The notes beneath the pieces were generated by a model that saw nothing but the letters and a program-made list of their open reading frames with translations, was not told the DNA's origin and searched no databases. Shown here in pieces: positions 35,334-51,186 of a DNA stretch of 64,000 nt. A program made the position numbers and the translations under genes. The stretch covers positions 898,293 through 962,292 of the forward strand of contig JACIVX010000001.1 of NCBI GenBank assembly GCA_014361295.1, given 5' to 3'. Origin of the DNA: Methanomassiliicoccales archaeon (lineage in GTDB: Archaea > Thermoplasmatota > Thermoplasmata > Methanomassiliicoccales > JACIVX01). Within the stretch, counting starts at the first letter, position 1, and every line of letters begins with the position of its first letter.

Positions 35334-35570
35334 TCATTCCTCCTCTTCATCTTCGTCCTCTTCGTCTTCTTCCTCGTACTCCTCTTCCTCGATTTCTTCG
35401 TAACCGAGCAATTCTTCGAGGGCATCTCTTGCTTCAGCAAGAATACTCAGCGCTCGCTTGCTTCTGCCCTCTTCAATCAGATCGATTGCCTTCTCGATGC
35501 TTTCAAGGATCTCATCTAGATCTTCGCTTATCTCATCAAAATAATCACCGAGGCTTTTCACCCTTATCAC
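35334..35570 (-). CDS. Small highly acidic protein with poly-Glu/Asp tail (hypothetical)
   Basis: 78-aa ORF with a GTG start preceded by AGGT, a helical acidic body, and a C-terminal EEEEYEEEDEEDEDEEEE tail. Confidence 0.35.
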   Translation of the reverse strand: MIRVKSLGDYFDEISEDLDEILESIEKAIDLIEEGRSKRALSILAEARDALEELLGYEEIEEEEYEEEDEEDEDEEEE

Positions 35571-41395: not shown

Positions 41396-41941
41396 GTGGA
41401 AATCAAGGAAGTGATTTGCTATATCACTAAGGAAGTCCAGGAAACTTTACAAAGGGTAGATCAAAAAGTCGTCGATGAGGTCATCGATTCAATCATCGGT
41501 GCGAAGAAGATCTTTCTCTACGGCGTAGGCCGATCTGGACTCGTCGGCCAAGCATTCGCGGTTAGACTTGTGCAGATGGGGTTGGATGTTCATTTCATCG
41601 GTGAGATGACAACACCGATTGTCGAAGAAAAAGATCTAGTCATCATAGTATCTAACACTGGTGAAACAATGTCCGCTATTCAGACGGCGAACATTGTGAG
41701 GAGGGTTGGCGCGAAAGTCATCGCCGTCACCTCGAACGTCCACTCGAAGTTAAGCCAGGCAGCAAACATCACCGTCGAAATTGCCCCGAAAAAAGATGAC
41801 CAGAGGAAGAAATACGCACCGCTTGGGACACTTTTTGAGGATTCGACATTCGTGTTTTTTGACTGCATTGTCCCGATCATCATGGCAAGACTGGGGCAGA
41901 ACGAGACATCACTGCGTAGACGCCACGCGATCTGGGTCTGA
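41396..41941 (+). CDS. 6-phospho-3-hexuloisomerase-like SIS-domain protein
   Basis: IFLYGVGRSGLVGQAFAVRLVQMGLDVHFIGE...VIIVSNTGET...GAKVIAVTS. GTG start 1 nt after the upstream stop. Confidence 0.75.
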   Translation: MEIKEVICYITKEVQETLQRVDQKVVDEVIDSIIGAKKIFLYGVGRSGLVGQAFAVRLVQMGLDVHFIGEMTTPIVEEKDLVIIVSNTGETMSAIQTANIVRRVGAKVIAVTSNVHSKLSQAANITVEIAPKKDDQRKKYAPLGTLFEDSTFVFFDCIVPIIMARLGQNETSLRRRHAIWV

Positions 41942-42571
41942 ACGTAACTCCCTCTTTTTCACGCGCGTTCCGTAGTAAGGATTTTCATATTCATCCCAGT
42001 AAATCGCAAATTCCCTCGTCCTGATCGCTTTTCCGTCGAGATAGAACGCTTTTATTTCCTTATTTACAGGATCAATGACGATCGCTGTATGACGACTACT
42101 CCTGAATAGAGACCTTTGCGTATATACGTCAGTCGATGACATAAAGCACCCGTGGCCAGGATGCGAATGATACCATCCGACAACGAGGTAATTGAATCCA
42201 GCCTCTTCGAGAGAGGCAAATAATTTTTCGAACGCGTCTCTGTCGAATCGAACATGAACGGAGGAGGACTCGAGGTCGGTCGTTACGACATCCTTGACGA
42301 TCGTGTATTCTTTCCCACCGTTCCTATAAATCCAGCCTAGGAGAAGCCCCATCGCTTCCTTCTGCATCTCGGCGAAACGGATAGAATGATTCCTCATTTT
42401 CTCCTCGGCGATCTTGGAAACATACAACTCGTAGCCGTCCCCTTCCATGCGCTTGTACTCCTCCAAGTCTTTCGCGCTCAACCATTTATGCGGCTTTGTC
42501 CTTTCAAATGGAGGTGGCGGGCGCTCCTCGATTTTTATTTCTTCCGCCCCGAGGATGCGGAGCTGTTTCAA
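41909..42571 (-). CDS. JAMM/MPN+ metalloisopeptidase (Rpn11/deubiquitinase-like), last gene of the ubiquitin-like cassette
   Basis: Conserved Glu (QKEAMGLLLG) and GWYHSHPGHGCFMSSTD, matching ExnHxHx7SxxD. The TTG start overlaps the E2 stop. An ATG at 42448 is an alternative start. Confidence 0.85.
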   Translation of the reverse strand: MKQLRILGAEEIKIEERPPPPFERTKPHKWLSAKDLEEYKRMEGDGYELYVSKIAEEKMRNHSIRFAEMQKEAMGLLLGWIYRNGGKEYTIVKDVVTTDLESSSVHVRFDRDAFEKLFASLEEAGFNYLVVGWYHSHPGHGCFMSSTDVYTQRSLFRSSRHTAIVIDPVNKEIKAFYLDGKAIRTREFAIYWDEYENPYYGTRVKKRELRSDPDRVASTQ

Positions 42572-43077
42572 TCAGATCTCACCACCTTGGGCGTCGGAGA
42601 ATAGACAATTGGAGGAGTCTTGATTTTTGCCCGATTGAAATAGGACGCAGCGGATGTACAGCTCTCCGTTCCGAACGGACTCGAAGGATTGGGGGCGAGG
42701 AGGAGGGCTTCAATCCCCTTGATGAATGATAGCAAAGTTGAATTAAATCCCCACTCATCGAGGAGTTTTGTACATAGATGTCCACCGTCTTCTGGCATCA
42801 TGATATTTGGATGGAATATGGGCGTTCTCCAAATGACCAGCGGCTTTTCGAACGGATAATCCCTCCCGATCAAAATCGAAAATCGGTGTTCATATCGTTT
42901 TTCAATTTTTCCATCTTCACACACAAAACCTGGAACTCCCTTCAGCTCAATCTCGATATTGATCGGAAAGCTACGCAAATTTTCATTAGAGAGATCGATT
43001 GGATGTCTTAGATAACGAGTGCATATCGCGAGCTCGTTCCTGAGTCGAGAAATAAGAATGTCAAGAGGGAGGGACAT
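42568..43077 (-). CDS. Ubiquitin-conjugating enzyme (E2/UBC-fold)-like protein
   Basis: YPFEKPLVIWRTPIFHPNIMMPEDGGHLCTKLLDEWGFNSTL contains the HPN triad and the catalytic Cys in the G-x-[IL]-C-x-x-L..W context of eukaryotic E2s. ATG immediately follows the Ubl stop (TGAATG). Confidence 0.8.
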   Translation of the reverse strand: MSLPLDILISRLRNELAICTRYLRHPIDLSNENLRSFPINIEIELKGVPGFVCEDGKIEKRYEHRFSILIGRDYPFEKPLVIWRTPIFHPNIMMPEDGGHLCTKLLDEWGFNSTLLSFIKGIEALLLAPNPSSPFGTESCTSAASYFNRAKIKTPPIVYSPTPKVVRSD

Positions 43078-43317
43078 TCATCCGCCCTCGGGATCTGGAA
43101 TCAGCTCGAGTTCATCGTTACTAAGAATCCCAGCCTCAGCGACGGTCTGCTGACCTCGCAAAAGCCGCCTGCCTCGTCTGAGAACATAAGCCCCAGCATC
43201 CTTCTCCCAATACCCTGCTGCACCTTCGATAATGTCATCGATCGTGTTTTCTCCTTCTAATTCCATTTCAACGGTCGCTCCTGATTCAGCATTCCTCACT
43301 TTGACTCTGAGCGGCAT
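43078..43317 (-). CDS. Ubiquitin-like beta-grasp protein ending in Gly-Gly
   Basis: 79 aa from ATG 43317: MPLRVKVRNAESGATVEMELEGENTIDDIIEGAAGYWEKDAGAYVLRRGRRLLRGQQTVAEAGILSNDELELIPDPEGG-stop. The strand-strand-helix-strand pattern and length fit the ubiquitin fold. The ORF is also open to a GTG at 43368. Confidence 0.75.
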   Translation of the reverse strand: MPLRVKVRNAESGATVEMELEGENTIDDIIEGAAGYWEKDAGAYVLRRGRRLLRGQQTVAEAGILSNDELELIPDPEGG

Positions 43318-43386
43318 AAAACCACAGAAAGCCAAACAGGCGGAATGCTCATTAAAGCTTTTGATCACAGTTAATTAATTCGATTC

Positions 43387-44211
43387 TCACGAATGAGAAT
43401 ACGGATGAATAGAATTAGATAGATTTGAAAGATGAACCGGACACATCGGATCTAATGAAACTTCAAATGAGTCAAAGGTATTAAGCAATCCGTTGTAATA
43501 GCAAACATGCCTGATACAATTTTCCTTCTTTCCGCTGATAATCTTGAGTCCTTCTCTCACCTGGATTGCTGCAATAATGCTCGTCGTCGTGATTTCTGCG
43601 GGGATTTTAGGCTCGTAAATTGAAATATCTGCACCGGTACAACTGAATCGTTTCTCGAGAATTTTCGCGTGCGTTTTGTTTGTTGCGCATTGCAGGCAAG
43701 GAGTATCAGGAGGCAGTACAACCTGGATTTTTCCAGTTGTGCCATCGGTTCCTCCGTCAATATACGGAACACCATAATAGTACGCGTGAGCATTCAAATG
43801 CAGTCGAGCGCCGATGTTGTCAAAACAACCGAAAACAACATCGTAATTCTTCAAACATCTCAAATCGATTTCCTCGATTCTTGAATTGATCGGCGTGATG
43901 TTTATCTCTGGATTAAGTTCTTTGGCCCGCTTTGCGATGATTTCGGCCTTCATCGATTTTCTTAATGCGTCCTCTTCCCTGAAAAGGACACACCGATTGA
44001 GATTTGAACGCACGACATAATCCATGTCGACAAGCACAATCGATCTTACGCCAGAAAGTACTAGATTTTTGATGACTTCGTTTCCAAGGGCGCCAGCCCC
44101 AGCCACGAAACACCTCGCCGACTCGATTCTTTCCATGTCGAGCCATCTGATCCTTCTTGATCGATCGAACCTATCTTCGTCAATTGCACCTATCCTGATC
44201 AAGGCACTCAT
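43387..44211 (-). CDS. E1-like (ThiF/MoeB/UBA-family) adenylating enzyme
   Basis: FVAGAGALGNEVIKNLVLSGV (GxGxxG), LVDMDYVVRSNLNRCVLF (DxDxVxxSNLxR motif), CLQC zinc/crossover region, candidate catalytic Cys in RFSCTGA. The start is taken at Met15; the ORF is open to 44253. Confidence 0.85.
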   Translation of the reverse strand: MSALIRIGAIDEDRFDRSRRIRWLDMERIESARCFVAGAGALGNEVIKNLVLSGVRSIVLVDMDYVVRSNLNRCVLFREEDALRKSMKAEIIAKRAKELNPEINITPINSRIEEIDLRCLKNYDVVFGCFDNIGARLHLNAHAYYYGVPYIDGGTDGTTGKIQVVLPPDTPCLQCATNKTHAKILEKRFSCTGADISIYEPKIPAEITTTSIIAAIQVREGLKIISGKKENCIRHVCYYNGLLNTFDSFEVSLDPMCPVHLSNLSNSIHPYSHS

Positions 44212-44575: not shown

Positions 44576-45694
44576 ATGAACAATGAGTTTACTGTAACAC
44601 CTTGGGAAGTCACTGGTGAAATCGATTACGACCTATTGCTAGAGAGATTCGGAACGAAAAGGATCGACGACGAGATGCTTGAAAGACTCTCAAAATATGG
44701 CGATCTGCACCCCATGCTACGCCGGGGTATTACATACTCGCACCGAGATCTTGACTGGATCTTGGACAAATACGATGCTGGTGAAAAATTCGTTCTCTAC
44801 ACCGGTCGTGGCCCTTCTGGAAATACTCATATCGGACATCTTGTCACGTGGATGTTTACCAAGTACCTCCAAGACGTTTTCGGGGCTAAGCTCTATTTTC
44901 AAATGACCGACGACGAAAAATTCCTTTTTAACGATAATCTAACGCTTGAAGATACGAGGAAAAACGCCTACGAGAACGCCCTCGATGTCATCGCTTTAGG
45001 ATTCGATCCAGCGAAGACGAAGATTTTCCTCGACACCGAATACATTCGAACTCTTTATCCAATCGCGCTCAAAGTCGCGAAAAAGGTCACATTTTCGACG
45101 GCACGGGCGGTTTTTGGATTTGACCACAGTAACAACATAGGGTCGATTTTCTACACGAGCATCCAGGCGGCACCAGCTTTCTTAGAGTCCGAATTGCAGG
45201 GAAAGAATGTACCTTGTTTGATTCCCTGCGGAATTGATCAAGACGCGCATTTCAGGGTCGCGAGGGATGCCGCTCCGCTGCTCGGATATTACAAGCCCGC
45301 ACTCATTCACAACAAGATGTTCCCGAGCCTCATGGGCGGGAATAAAATGTCATCATCCCAGCCAGAAACCACGATCTTCACGACTGACGATGCGCAGGCT
45401 GTAAAGAAGAAAATTGCGAACGCATTTACGGGCGGCGCCGTTTCTGCCGCGGAACAGAGGAAACACGGAGGAAAACCAGACGTTTGTTCTGTGTTCAAAT
45501 ATGAATACTTTCTTTTCGAACCTGATGATGAGAAGCTGAATCACCTCTACGACGCGTGTAAGAAGGGCGAAATCCTTTGCGGCGAATGCAAGAAACGGTT
45601 GACAGAGAGAATTGTCAAATTCCTCGAAGCACACCAAAAGAAACGGGAGCAGGCGCGAGAGAAACTCGAGGCGTTCATATTAAGGGATGGATGA
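44576..45694 (+). CDS. trpS: Tryptophanyl-tRNA synthetase (archaeal/eukaryotic type)
   Basis: Class I HIGH (GPSGNTHIGHL) and KMSKS (KMSSS) motifs. 372 aa, with an N-terminus typical of archaeal TrpRS. Confidence 0.88.
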   Translation: MNNEFTVTPWEVTGEIDYDLLLERFGTKRIDDEMLERLSKYGDLHPMLRRGITYSHRDLDWILDKYDAGEKFVLYTGRGPSGNTHIGHLVTWMFTKYLQDVFGAKLYFQMTDDEKFLFNDNLTLEDTRKNAYENALDVIALGFDPAKTKIFLDTEYIRTLYPIALKVAKKVTFSTARAVFGFDHSNNIGSIFYTSIQAAPAFLESELQGKNVPCLIPCGIDQDAHFRVARDAAPLLGYYKPALIHNKMFPSLMGGNKMSSSQPETTIFTTDDAQAVKKKIANAFTGGAVSAAEQRKHGGKPDVCSVFKYEYFLFEPDDEKLNHLYDACKKGEILCGECKKRLTERIVKFLEAHQKKREQAREKLEAFILRDG

Positions 45695-46311: not shown

Positions 46312-47868
46312 ATGACAAATAGTCCTCTGATTTTTATCCCTTTTTGCATGGAGATTCCAGAGATCATCGAAAGCCTCAGCCCCAACGAAAAACGAGTTCT
46401 CATCGCACTGAAGGATCTCGGTGGAATTGGGACTCCTGAGGATGTAATGAAAAGGGGAAATTTCAGGCAGCTTGTCGAGGTCATGAATGCTGCTTCCTGG
46501 CTTCAGTCAAAAGAGCTCGTACGCATCGAAGAGAGCGCAAAGAAGGTTTATTCATTAAAGGACCAAAAGATTATTGAAGAGGGATTGCCTGAACGGAGGG
46601 CACTCAATGCAATTCATTCTCGTGGCGGGATGATCGACGCCCATGATCTCGAAGGAGTTCTTAATAAAGAAGAAATTCCCATTGCTATAGGATGGCTCAA
46701 GAGAAAAGGGCTTGTGGATATCAAGAAAGACAGTTCAAGAACGTTACTGGAGCTTACGAACCAGGGTAGAAAGGTAGTATCCTCAGAGATGGAAGACGAA
46801 AAAATTCTCAAGCTGCTTGGGGAAAGAGAGGTCCTTGAGGGCGAAGCGGATAAGAAGATTATTGAACGATTGAAGTCTCGCCAGAACTTGATCAACGAGA
46901 GACTCGTGGTAAGGAGAAAGCTGATTTTGACGGAACTAGGATCGAAAATTGCTTCACAGAAGCTCGAGGCGAGAGAGGAAGTCGGTCAGATTACACCAGA
47001 TCTTATACAAACCGGACGGTGGCGGGACGTCACACTGAGGAAGTACGACATCAGAACTTATGCACCCTCCGCGTATCCAGGAAAGAAGCATCCCATTACG
47101 AGAATGGCTTCGGAGGTGCGGAGAATCTTTGTTCAGATGGGATTTAAGGAAATCGATGATGAGTACGTTCAGGCGGCGTTCTGGAACATGGATGCGCTTT
47201 TCACACCACAGGATCACCCAGCGAGAGATCTTCAGGACACTTTCTATCTGAAAAATCCTGCGAAGATTCCGCTAGAGGACGAGGAACTCGTTAAAAAAGT
47301 CAAAGAAATGCATGAAACAGGAGGCTGGACTGGTTCGACTGGTTGGCGATATAGGTGGAGAAGAGAGGAGGCAGAAAAGGCGCTGCTACGAACGCATACA
47401 ACAGTTGCGACAATCCGTTATCTTGCAAAGAATCCTAACCCGCCAATCAAAGTTTTCTCGATCTCAAGGATTTTTCGTAATGAGGCGATCGACGCAACGC
47501 ACTTGCCAGAGTTCATGCAAATCGAGGGCATTGTCGTTGAAGAGGGGGCAAACTTCGACATGCTCTGTGGCATTTTAAAAGAATTTTACCGACAGATGGG
47601 GTTCAAAAAACTAAGATTCCGACCAGGTTATTTCCCATACACTGAGCCATCGCTCGAAGTCGAGGTTTTTCACAATGGAAAATGGATGGAGCTCGGCGGT
47701 GCGGGAATTTTCAGACCCGAAGTGACGGCACCGTTCGGCGTGAAACACAATGTGCTGGCGTGGGGACTTGGTTTCGAAAGAATCGCAATGCTGCGGTGGA
47801 ACCTGACAGATATCAGGGAACTTTATATCAGCGATATCGATCTCCTGAGAAAGAGTCCGATTTTTTAG
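46312..47868 (+). CDS. pheS: Phenylalanyl-tRNA synthetase alpha subunit (archaeal)
   Basis: N-terminal winged-helix repeats. Class II motifs: HPARDLQDTFY, LLRTHTT, FRNEAIDATHLPEFMQIEG, GAGIFRPEV, AWGLGFERIAM. Confidence 0.92.
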   Translation: MTNSPLIFIPFCMEIPEIIESLSPNEKRVLIALKDLGGIGTPEDVMKRGNFRQLVEVMNAASWLQSKELVRIEESAKKVYSLKDQKIIEEGLPERRALNAIHSRGGMIDAHDLEGVLNKEEIPIAIGWLKRKGLVDIKKDSSRTLLELTNQGRKVVSSEMEDEKILKLLGEREVLEGEADKKIIERLKSRQNLINERLVVRRKLILTELGSKIASQKLEAREEVGQITPDLIQTGRWRDVTLRKYDIRTYAPSAYPGKKHPITRMASEVRRIFVQMGFKEIDDEYVQAAFWNMDALFTPQDHPARDLQDTFYLKNPAKIPLEDEELVKKVKEMHETGGWTGSTGWRYRWRREEAEKALLRTHTTVATIRYLAKNPNPPIKVFSISRIFRNEAIDATHLPEFMQIEGIVVEEGANFDMLCGILKEFYRQMGFKKLRFRPGYFPYTEPSLEVEVFHNGKWMELGGAGIFRPEVTAPFGVKHNVLAWGLGFERIAMLRWNLTDIRELYISDIDLLRKSPIF

Positions 47869-49180
47869 TAGCCGCTAGTTTCGCGCTGATTTCCATCGAT
47901 TTATCCTTCATGCCGAGGAGCAAATATGCTTCGGCAAGAGCCTTGATCACCTTCGAACCATCCTGATTTTTAAGCAGTCCGAGACTTTTGCTAAAACATT
48001 TGACTGCTTCCTGCCCGTTTCCCAAACTCATATGTACCAGGCCGAGCTGGTAGTAAAGCCTGTCGAGAAATTCTGGATCTCGCTTTTTCAACTGCATCGG
48101 CAGAATTGATTCTAAAATGCTCCTTGCTTCGTCATAACGCTTGAGGCCGATGAGTGCGTCAACAATCTCGCATTCGAGCCTCACATTACTACTGTCATCG
48201 CCAAATAATTTTTTCCCCTCGGTGAAGTATACAAGTGCTTCTTCAAAGTTGTTCTTGCCCCGCGCGACGAGGCCTTTGATCATTTTCCCTTCCGCCTGTT
48301 CCCTCGTCGTTGAGAATCCCTCAAGTTTGCTCGCCAATTTGCTTGCAAAGTCATTATGACCAGTTTTTAGCGCGACCTCGGCGGCGAAAATGAAGACCTT
48401 GCCAGCATACCTTTCGGAGGGATTTGTCATGAGTGATGCGATCGAAAAGAGATCCTCATCAGCATCCGCAATCAGATGCTGCCGTCTGTTCGCAATCAAT
48501 ATCTCCGCCTCGCGCATCCTACCAGCCTCGATAAGATGATACAATCGCTCCCTGTAATCGCCTTCCTGCAGCCAGTAATCCGCCGCAAAACTATGATATC
48601 GCTTCAAGTCAGAAGGCTCAACGAGTTGCACGATCGCTTTTCTCAAATCTTCCGGGATCTCGACTATCCCGTCTGGATTCGTTGGCAGTAAAGCGATGCT
48701 CGTCTCCGGCAAAGCCGATCTTCTGAAAGGTTTCCTGAATACGCAAGCCTGCGCGAGAATTGGTCGGAATTTGCCATCGATCGAATTCCACAGCTCTTCG
48801 CCTTTACACTTTCTCAAATCTAACAACGGTGTAATGGCGATTCCTTCCTTCTCGGCGAACTCGCGAATCTTCTGTGCTCGCCCTTCTCCCTTTGGCGTCA
48901 AAAAATAGACCTTTCGTTTCGTTTTCCCTTTCTTGACATGTGCAAGACGTTCGATGACCTCCGAAGTTTCTTTGAGCTTCTTGAGCTCGATAGCCGCATG
49001 CGCTCTTGAAATCCTTATCGCCGAAGCGATTCCGTCTTGGCTGACTTCCATCGGCACATCGTATTCATCCTGAAATCGTGAATACTGGGAAAGATGGAGA
49101 ACGATTCTCTCGGCAACAGTAAGTGAAGCGGGCATGTGGGGTTTATCGGATATCCAGATATATAGATATACGGAAAACAT
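47828..49180 (-). CDS. Winged-HTH plus TPR-repeat protein (putative regulator)
   Basis: N-terminal wHTH-like segment (LTVAERIVLHL...SQDGIASAIRISRAHAAIELKKL...KVYFLTPKG) and C-terminal TPR-like repeats. It overlaps the convergent pheS 3' end by 41 nt. Confidence 0.7.
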   Translation of the reverse strand: MFSVYLYIWISDKPHMPASLTVAERIVLHLSQYSRFQDEYDVPMEVSQDGIASAIRISRAHAAIELKKLKETSEVIERLAHVKKGKTKRKVYFLTPKGEGRAQKIREFAEKEGIAITPLLDLRKCKGEELWNSIDGKFRPILAQACVFRKPFRRSALPETSIALLPTNPDGIVEIPEDLRKAIVQLVEPSDLKRYHSFAADYWLQEGDYRERLYHLIEAGRMREAEILIANRRQHLIADADEDLFSIASLMTNPSERYAGKVFIFAAEVALKTGHNDFASKLASKLEGFSTTREQAEGKMIKGLVARGKNNFEEALVYFTEGKKLFGDDSSNVRLECEIVDALIGLKRYDEARSILESILPMQLKKRDPEFLDRLYYQLGLVHMSLGNGQEAVKCFSKSLGLLKNQDGSKVIKALAEAYLLLGMKDKSMEISAKLAATKKSDSFSGDRYR

Positions 49181-50469: not shown

Positions 50470-51186
50470 CTATTTCTGTCTTCTACCACAGATAGGGCAA
50501 ACAATCCAGCTTTCATCAAGTGGCGATCCACAATTCACGCAGGTCTTTCCGCGAACTGAATCTTCCATCGGCGTCCGCTTTGCATCAAAAGATGCGGTAT
50601 GACGTTTCGTTGAAAATTCTGGTCGGGGTGAATACCATGTGGAAGTGGCGTGTCGGTGACCGACGTGACCAAGAAGAAGCACGAGTGATCCTGCAAAAAC
50701 GAGGACACTGCCAAAAACGGCTACAAAGGCAGCAGCCCCATATTTCACTCCTGGTATAATCCCTATCGAAAAGTCATCGGTTATCCACAAGATGGAGATC
50801 GCGATAATGATTATGCAAATCATCGATGAGAGAAATGATGCTGCTGACCAGATGGCAGTATGGGGGCGAGTGCTAAGTTTCGAAACGATCTCAGCGATCG
50901 TGAGAATGATCACTGCGATAGAAATGGCAATGAGAAGATACATGATCAAATAATTCTCACTGCGACCAACAAGGTCGCCAACTGTGAGTGAGTTCGAGAC
51001 CATATGAGGACGGGAGATTTCAACCCAGGGTAAAAGAAATGTGATGAGAATCAATATGATTCCGATTGAATTGAAAAAAACACCGAGCATGAGCGCAGGG
51101 TGCAACCCACCCTTCGAACTCGGTGATCGAATCGTCCTCCGAGATTTTTTCATCCAGTCAGCCCCTTCACCCTCGAGATTTTCCAT
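50470..51186 (-). CDS. Membrane protein (about 5 TM) with C-terminal zinc ribbon
   Basis: Hydrophobic core plus a C-terminal CVNCGSPLDESWIVCPICG. Confidence 0.6.
   Translation of the reverse strand: MENLEGEGADWMKKSRRTIRSPSSKGGLHPALMLGVFFNSIGIILILITFLLPWVEISRPHMVSNSLTVGDLVGRSENYLIMYLLIAISIAVIILTIAEIVSKLSTRPHTAIWSAASFLSSMICIIIIAISILWITDDFSIGIIPGVKYGAAAFVAVFGSVLVFAGSLVLLLGHVGHRHATSTWYSPRPEFSTKRHTASFDAKRTPMEDSVRGKTCVNCGSPLDESWIVCPICGRRQK

Follow-up and report, generated by a model that had tools for sequence, protein, structure and literature searches.

A predicted eukaryote-type ubiquitin-like conjugation system in Methanomassiliicoccales, with a candidate RING E3 encoded in trans

Background

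Cascades of E1 and E2 of the eukaryote type are commonly regarded as a trait of Asgard archaea and Aigarchaeota. The closest described system is the operon of Ca. Caldiarchaeum subterraneum and Asgard archaea, which comprises ubiquitin, E1, E2, an srfp RING E3 and Rpn11 (PMC5654768). In C. subterraneum, Rpn11 trims pro-ubiquitin, and ubiquitin that ends in Gly-Gly is activated without protease (PMC5654768). BilABCD operons (Type I/II) carry a ubiquitin-like protein (Ubl), an E2, a JAMM protease and an E1; BilC both trims and deconjugates, and the Ubl tails of Type II Bil reach up to nine residues (10.1101/2023.09.26.559546). For Type I Bub operons (6E/DUF6527), maturation has been proposed as the main task of the JAMM (10.1101/2024.11.21.623953). 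Thermoplasmatota are not named in the accessible part of the text and supplement of the C. subterraneum paper (PMC5654768). A literature search returned no description of the cascade in this phylum, with most subscription journals outside its reach and an earlier mention possible.

Here we describe a four-gene operon in a 64,000-nucleotide stretch of a Methanomassiliicoccales genome (the window), in which an earlier note had pointed to a Ubl encoded in mature form. The mature Gly-Gly end matters little alone; the surrounding system, the coupling of the JAMM to the tail of the tag and a candidate E3 encoded in trans matter more.

Results and discussion

A four-gene operon at a fixed chromosomal place

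The features of the locus are the following.

44576..45694, plus strand: TrpRS, fixed upstream neighbour, a locus marker
43387..44211, minus strand: E1, 274 aa from ATG 44211, with GxGxxG, zinc CxxC/CxxH, a catalytic Cys in the crossover loop (FSC) and no C-terminal UFD
43351..43384, minus strand: conserved promoter-like element internal to the operon, of putative function
43078..43317, minus strand: Ubl gene, a ubiquitin-fold modifier of 79 aa, encoded mature
43078..43086, minus strand: Gly-Gly codons and TGA stop of the Ubl gene, immediately followed by the E2 start codon at 43077
42568..43077, minus strand: E2, canonical UBC fold, 169 aa, with HPN motif and invariant catalytic Cys102
41909..42571, minus strand: Rpn11-like JAMM protease, 220 aa, with a TTG start overlapping the E2 stop and E72/H135/H137/S145/D148 intact
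41396..41941, plus strand: SIS-domain housekeeping gene, fixed downstream neighbour, a locus marker outside the system

All four operon proteins have eukaryotic ubiquitin-pathway proteins as their best matches. By sequence score the E1 is nearer to eukaryotic E1 (best PDB match human UBA1, 5.6e-31) than to MoeB (2.4e-20), and its ATP site, zinc site and catalytic Cys are present. Its ThiF match stops 16 residues short of the stop codon, with no C-terminal UFD. A TTG 44253 start for this protein was rejected because homologues begin at ATG 44211. The best PDB matches of the E2 are Ubc12 and other E2s, and the JAMM matches yeast Rpn11 (9e-19) and C. subterraneum Rpn11 (4e-14). Across 74-89 loci the catalytic residues of the operon proteins are essentially invariant.

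The order E1-Ubl-E2-JAMM between TrpRS and SIS/EndoIV is kept throughout Methanomassiliicoccales, where the operon is single-copy; in genomes from which it has been cleanly deleted, TrpRS directly abuts SIS. Of 301 sampled genomes of the phylum, 84 gave a Ubl and 70 a strong E2 match. Five genomes were searched for E2 with the E2 protein and a profile in place of PF00179, and one genome (G309), in which the contig ends 258 nt after SIS and no JAMM remnant was seen, was not counted as a firm operon loss. Judged by gene order and conservation, the operon is a chromosomally fixed, vertically inherited, eukaryote-type E1-Ubl-E2-Rpn11-like system of Methanomassiliicoccales and other Thermoplasmatota. 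It is not essential, since it has been lost repeatedly within the order. PAN is encoded separately from the operon in this genome.

Like the C. subterraneum and Asgard operon (PMC5654768), the system has a ubiquitin-fold Gly-Gly tag, an E1 with a catalytic Cys, a canonical HPN/Cys E2 and an Rpn11-like JAMM, with tail trimming apparently required in relatives. The tag differs in being about 20% identical to ubiquitin, in its acidic PDPEGG end and in being encoded mature here; unlike those of Clusters I/II, the E1 has no C-terminal UFD. The operon also differs in having no RING E3; the candidate, a C4HC3 RING protein with a membrane anchor and zinc ribbons, is encoded in trans. Because the UFD on the E1 and the RING in the operon are missing, we regard the system as a variant, not a member, of the C. 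subterraneum type.

Several loci have decayed or rearranged. In L159-L166 the E2 is gone and the Ubl-like frame has no Gly-Gly, with an E1 devoid of catalytic residues in L159/L160. Genus g10 retains only this frame. The Ubl without Gly-Gly may have been repurposed. In one genome of family f9 (G083), a Ubl-E2 fusion without Gly-Gly (L173:8722-9504, plus strand) lies divergent from a 1,473-aa RING protein. A contig titled Anaerovoracaceae bacterium (CAVFUJ010000010.1, L036) carries a locus near-identical to those of Methanomethylophilaceae and is probably mis-binned.

A candidate RING E3 is encoded in trans

No RING gene lies inside the operon across the order, and a canonical RING regular expression run over the genome gave no match. 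A Pfam search of the genome found the following gene, about 67 kb from the operon and about 24 kb before the window.

G000:C1 873722-874477 (L063:1066-1821), minus strand: candidate E3 (P0114), 251 aa, single-copy, outside the window, upstream of ftsZ

Its product has a stretch that reads as a hydrophobic N-terminal anchor, then a C4HC3 finger scoring above the Pfam cut-off for Prok-RING_1 (PF14446), then zinc ribbons. Prok-RING_1 is associated with ubiquitin genes. C4HC3 is the described arrangement of prokaryotic RING (PMC11354881). P0114 resembles that family in its C4HC3 finger and its above-threshold score, and differs in the short spacing before the last Cys pair, the trailing zinc ribbons, the lack of linkage and its order-wide presence in Methanomassiliicoccales.

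From its pattern of inheritance we think it fairly likely that P0114 is the E3 of the Ubl cascade. The protein is conserved in the order, and 80 of 81 order genomes are concordant for RING and E2 (both in 65, neither in 15, RING only in 1). In the sole RING-only genome, the RING has lost two Cys and carries a premature TAG. The two genes also split alike within single genera, being present in 6/10 genomes of g3 and 2/5 of g140. E2 loss amounts to 6 changes on the SIS+EndoIV tree, and the two loss groups of family f2 are rejected as one clade (p-AU 2e-28). Because kin are not independent, we count the RING/E2 losses as roughly four to six events.

The alternative is a cascade without an E3. Target selection would then fall to the E2, as it does in Bil, and the RING protein would be a zinc finger of cell division or of the membrane, co-lost for another reason such as genome streamlining. 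It draws on the operon of this order having no RING, on the place of the RING gene before ftsZ in most genomes outside family f2, and on RING without a strong E2 match in 18 of 301 phylum genomes (f6, f8, f21 and a few others). The concordance described above, splits inside genera included, argues against it, as does the physical linkage of the same RING family to the operon, adjacent to or inside it, in six other families (f9, f12, f24, f27, f29 and f36). Streamlining fares poorly too, given that small gut genomes (1.2-1.5 Mb) retain both genes. We therefore consider an E3-less cascade unlikely. Counting against an E3 role, the search found no RING in 6 of the 70 E2-positive phylum genomes.

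Structure prediction is consistent with a RING. The model has a pLDDT of 87, and its top Foldseek matches are RING E3s at E about 0.01, weak as is typical of small domains. The C4HC3 ligand pattern is conserved save for ligand 4 in one clade; against an E3 role, a conserved linchpin Arg is lacking, and C4HC3 is also the PHD/NSE1 pattern. The predicted E2-RING complex gives the E3 role weak support, a weakness that also favours the E3-less alternative: ipSAE is 0.57 against 0.00 for the best control, with runs sharing at least 96% of contacts and partner pLDDT of at least 80. The ipSAE mark is reached by 58/80 solved and 2/110 mismatched pairs, and scores at or below 0.60 include only 7/80 solved pairs and both mismatches. 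RING-E2 complexes have already been solved, and the predictor may be reproducing them.

Other RING proteins were seen in the phylum. Two loci of family f12 (L169:3664-13128 and L170:3574-13167, plus strand) encode, between E1 and Ubl, a protein of 3,100 aa that has no Pfam match and carries a RING at its C-terminus; in L169 an Ig/PKD-repeat protein with a C-terminal RING also lies just upstream of E1. Genomes of family f37 (G066, G071, G100, G112) have 12-20 RING-domain matches each, mostly in very long proteins, and two E2 copies; this expansion looks like an E3 radiation.

Comparison with Bil and Bub, and a possible role in defence

The earlier note had set the tag beside Bil-type Ubls. This comparison proved loose, the system being nearer to the C. 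subterraneum cascade. Like BilABCD (Type I/II; 10.1101/2023.09.26.559546), it has a Ubl, E2, JAMM and E1 gene set, Ubl tails of variable length and a JAMM predicted to trim as well as deconjugate. Unlike BilABCD, it has a single-domain E1 of 274 aa rather than an IAD-AAD-CYS protein, the gene order E1-Ubl-E2-JAMM, a core-genome locus and a co-inherited RING, and it has no CapH/CapP. With Bub (10.1101/2024.11.21.623953) it shares a homodimer-type E1 with a single adenylation domain; Bub E1 and E2 lack the catalytic Cys and come with BubE, whereas both cysteines are conserved here and the operon has no BubE-like gene. On these sequence features, the system is distinct from Bil and Bub.

Could the operon nevertheless be an antiviral module like Bil or CBASS, with virus proteins as the targets of the tag? 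Its four-gene content is that of BilABCD, it has been lost repeatedly, and PADLOC gives weak matches of E1 and JAMM to CBASS E1-E2/JAB and BilD models (only 3e-5 for BilD). PADLOC has no match for the Ubl or the E2, however, and the E1 is not of the IAD-AAD-CYS type. A fixed place among housekeeping genes, a single copy in the order and very low dN/dS also speak against defence, which we judge quite improbable as the main function. A role in defence may exist alongside vertical inheritance.

The Ubl ends at Gly-Gly and starts at ATG 43317

The frame from ATG 43317 encodes 79 aa with the C-terminus PDPEGG, followed by TGA at 43080-43078 and, with no gap, the E2 ATG at 43077. The claim that the reading frame ends in this way on the minus strand (43317-43078) is confirmed, and with it the claim that this copy carries no propeptide to be removed. 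At the same codon, close relatives have TGA (L001), TAA (G280) and TAG (G196). The use of three different stop codons indicates that the stop is real and rules out the read-through or sequencing error that the earlier note had named as possible objections. The terminal Gly-Gly is invariant in an alignment of 64 rows and is thus not due to chance.

The AF2 model of the Ubl has a pLDDT of 93, and its top Foldseek matches (TM 0.8-0.88) are ISG15, SUMO, ubiquitin and C. subterraneum ubiquitin. By sequence, Pfam finds weak ubiquitin/YukD similarity and nothing else, database homologues are annotated hypothetical or YukD-like, and the family profile matches ubiquitin, Rad23 and Hub1 in the PDB. The protein is 97% identical to its counterpart in a Methanomassiliicoccales MAG. 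The dN/dS of the Ubl is 0.00-0.09. Its only lysines are K6 and K39, and K39 is conserved in 86/88 loci. K48-type chains were considered and rejected: position 50, equivalent in the presumed register, is K in only 53/88 loci and R here.

A second start, GTG 43368, would give a 96-aa Ubl, and the earlier note had left the choice between the two starts ambiguous. The choice falls on ATG 43317 and the longer variant is unsupported. A start codon stands exactly at the ATG 43317 position in 132/156 loci, the other 24 being within two codons or unassigned. The 17-residue extension is open in the window; in 2/3 same-genus relatives a shift of one base puts it out of frame, closed by a stop.

Its location inside a promoter-like element explains why the GTG is conserved at the DNA level. 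This conserved element, about 65-69 nt upstream of the Ubl ATG, consists of inverted arms (ATC..N13..GAT) just upstream of a purine-rich BRE-like run and a TATA-like TTTAAT (43356-43351), a box at about -39. A TATA-like word occurs at -46..-29 in 28/62 loci, compared to a mean of 6.8 and a maximum of 15 in shuffled sequences. A position weight matrix built without the rows close to its own genus places the Ubl upstream element first in the genome (25.0 vs 17.6 for the next site), and the scan gave no clear second site that would point to a regulon. We infer that the element is an internal promoter for Ubl-E2-JAMM, in which case GTG 43368 would fall upstream of its transcript. The inverted arms are a possible activator site. 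The element is absent in family f2, where E1 abuts Ubl. In some Methanomassiliicoccaceae (L005, L008) E1 and Ubl are separated by inserts of 2.5-4 kb, consistent with Ubl-E2-JAMM having its own promoter.

C-terminal tails and the JAMM

Tails of 1-15 residues follow the Gly-Gly in 103 of 159 loci. The tail is absent in 56 Ubls, a single residue in 58, two residues long in 15 and six in 21; a few tails reach as many as 15. The tails are not conserved, the first extra residue taking 14 identities, and those of six residues extend into the E2 gene in another frame. On a tree of 94 rows, tail presence changes 6 times, where shuffling gives a minimum of 21, and is clade-inherited yet labile. By this comparison, mature encoding is an ordinary and labile state and no distinguishing feature of this Ubl. 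Such lability fits a protease that cleaves behind Gly-Gly irrespective of the residues beyond it, as do C. subterraneum Rpn11 and BilC.

In a table of 94 loci, a tail is found with a live JAMM in 62, no tail with a live JAMM in 25, no tail with a dead JAMM in 7, and a tail with a dead JAMM in none. The dead JAMMs, all in family f2 (L056, L167, L168, L186-L189), are shortened and have lost both zinc histidines, and their frames are still open beside an E1 and E2 that keep their cysteines. The Ubl ends at Gly-Gly in 7/7 of these loci, while tails are present in 30/31 sister loci whose JAMM is live. A reading of genus g3 of this family as JAMM-less was wrong, its loci carrying the shortened dead JAMM. 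The dead JAMMs fall in two clades on two trees, and AU tests leave a single origin unrejected (p 0.09 and 0.22), so a firm claim of two independent deaths was dropped; the correlation between tail and dead JAMM rests on one or two events. In genomes nested within a dead-JAMM genus the E2 is gone and the E1 catalytic residues and the Ubl Gly-Gly are lost. Dead JAMMs may retain a binding role.

Taken together, these patterns suggest that a tail requires the JAMM and that the cascade can outlast the loss of JAMM catalysis. Catalytic loss is seen solely at tail-less loci, so maturation is a genuine task of the JAMM family. On the same comparison, deconjugation by the JAMM is dispensable in at least one lineage. 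We conclude that the family matures the Ubl and probably also deconjugates.

If maturation were the only job, the JAMM of this genome would be a relic with no part in deconjugation. The tolerance of catalytic loss in tail-less loci with intact E1 and E2 can be read in this way, but 25 tail-less loci in several families, this one included, keep the full metal site, dN/dS in tail-less pairs is 0.06-0.13, similar to E2 and SIS, and even dead JAMMs stay open frames. We see little probability in a maturase-only JAMM. In this genome the tag is mature and the JAMM is intact under purifying selection (dN/dS 0.075 vs two relatives), so that a post-maturation role, in deconjugation or recycling, is the natural reading. 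The earlier note's preference for this role over maturation stands here; it does not carry over to the family, given the tails in most loci and the loss of catalysis only without one.

In five loci (L014, L017, L029, L032, L069) the Ubl ends in Gly-Gly followed by TAG, which could encode a conditional read-through tail in pyrrolysine-decoding organisms.

Proposed mechanism

Operon anatomy, folds, conservation of catalytic residues, tail lability and the co-variation of tail with JAMM and of RING with E2 are observed. The chemical steps proposed from them, like the E3 and housekeeping roles, are put conditionally. We consider it probable that the Ubl serves as the tag in a conjugation cascade of the eukaryote type, passed on by vertical inheritance, with a RING E3 in trans and a JAMM that deconjugates here. 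Translated from ATG 43317, the Ubl would be ready for use. The E1 would adenylate its terminal Gly and then hold it as a thioester on the crossover-loop Cys, from which it would pass to Cys102 of the E2 and onto lysines of cellular proteins, the choice of targets probably being aided by the membrane-anchored RING E3 encoded upstream of ftsZ. The JAMM would cut after Gly-Gly whatever follows. In most relatives it would trim incidental tails, which may result from drift of the stop codon where Ubl and E2 closely adjoin; it would also strip the tag from conjugates, and in this genome only that job would be left. The whole would serve a housekeeping role, perhaps protein quality control near the membrane. 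Counting against this model, an E1 without a C-terminal UFD leaves E2 recruitment unexplained.

A sulfur carrier of the ThiS/MoaD/SAMP type activated by a ThiF-like enzyme, which the terminal Gly-Gly and the ThiF-family E1 might suggest, is very improbable: a canonical E2 with an invariant Cys is present, the Ubl has no match to ThiS (PF02597), four genes of the ThiS family and two further ThiF enzymes are encoded elsewhere in this genome, apart from the operon, the fold matches of the Ubl are eukaryotic Ubls, and its Gly-Gly is lost where the E2 is lost.

If the RING in trans is indeed the E3 of the cascade, the kit would be complete rather than E3-less and would offer a handle on substrates. 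A tail-less Ubl is convenient for reconstitution because no protease is needed, and orthologues with and without tails, with live and dead JAMMs, allow maturation and deconjugation to be separated experimentally. It is conceivable, although we hold this broader view only tentatively and it may well fail, that a core E1-E2-RING E3-JAMM cascade operates in Methanomassiliicoccales and related Thermoplasmatota, in which the membrane RING encoded next to ftsZ tags membrane or division proteins. Such a system would be ERAD-like and outside Asgard/TACK, and would decay in series, the JAMM dying once the tag is tail-less, after which E2, E1, Gly-Gly and RING go.

Other genes of the window

Three further genes on the minus strand of the window drew our attention: a protein of 450 aa that has TPR repeats and, probably, a winged helix at its N-terminus (47828-49180), an ORF of 78 aa whose C-terminal run is very acidic (35334-35570), and a membrane protein of four helices with a C-terminal zinc ribbon (50470-51186).
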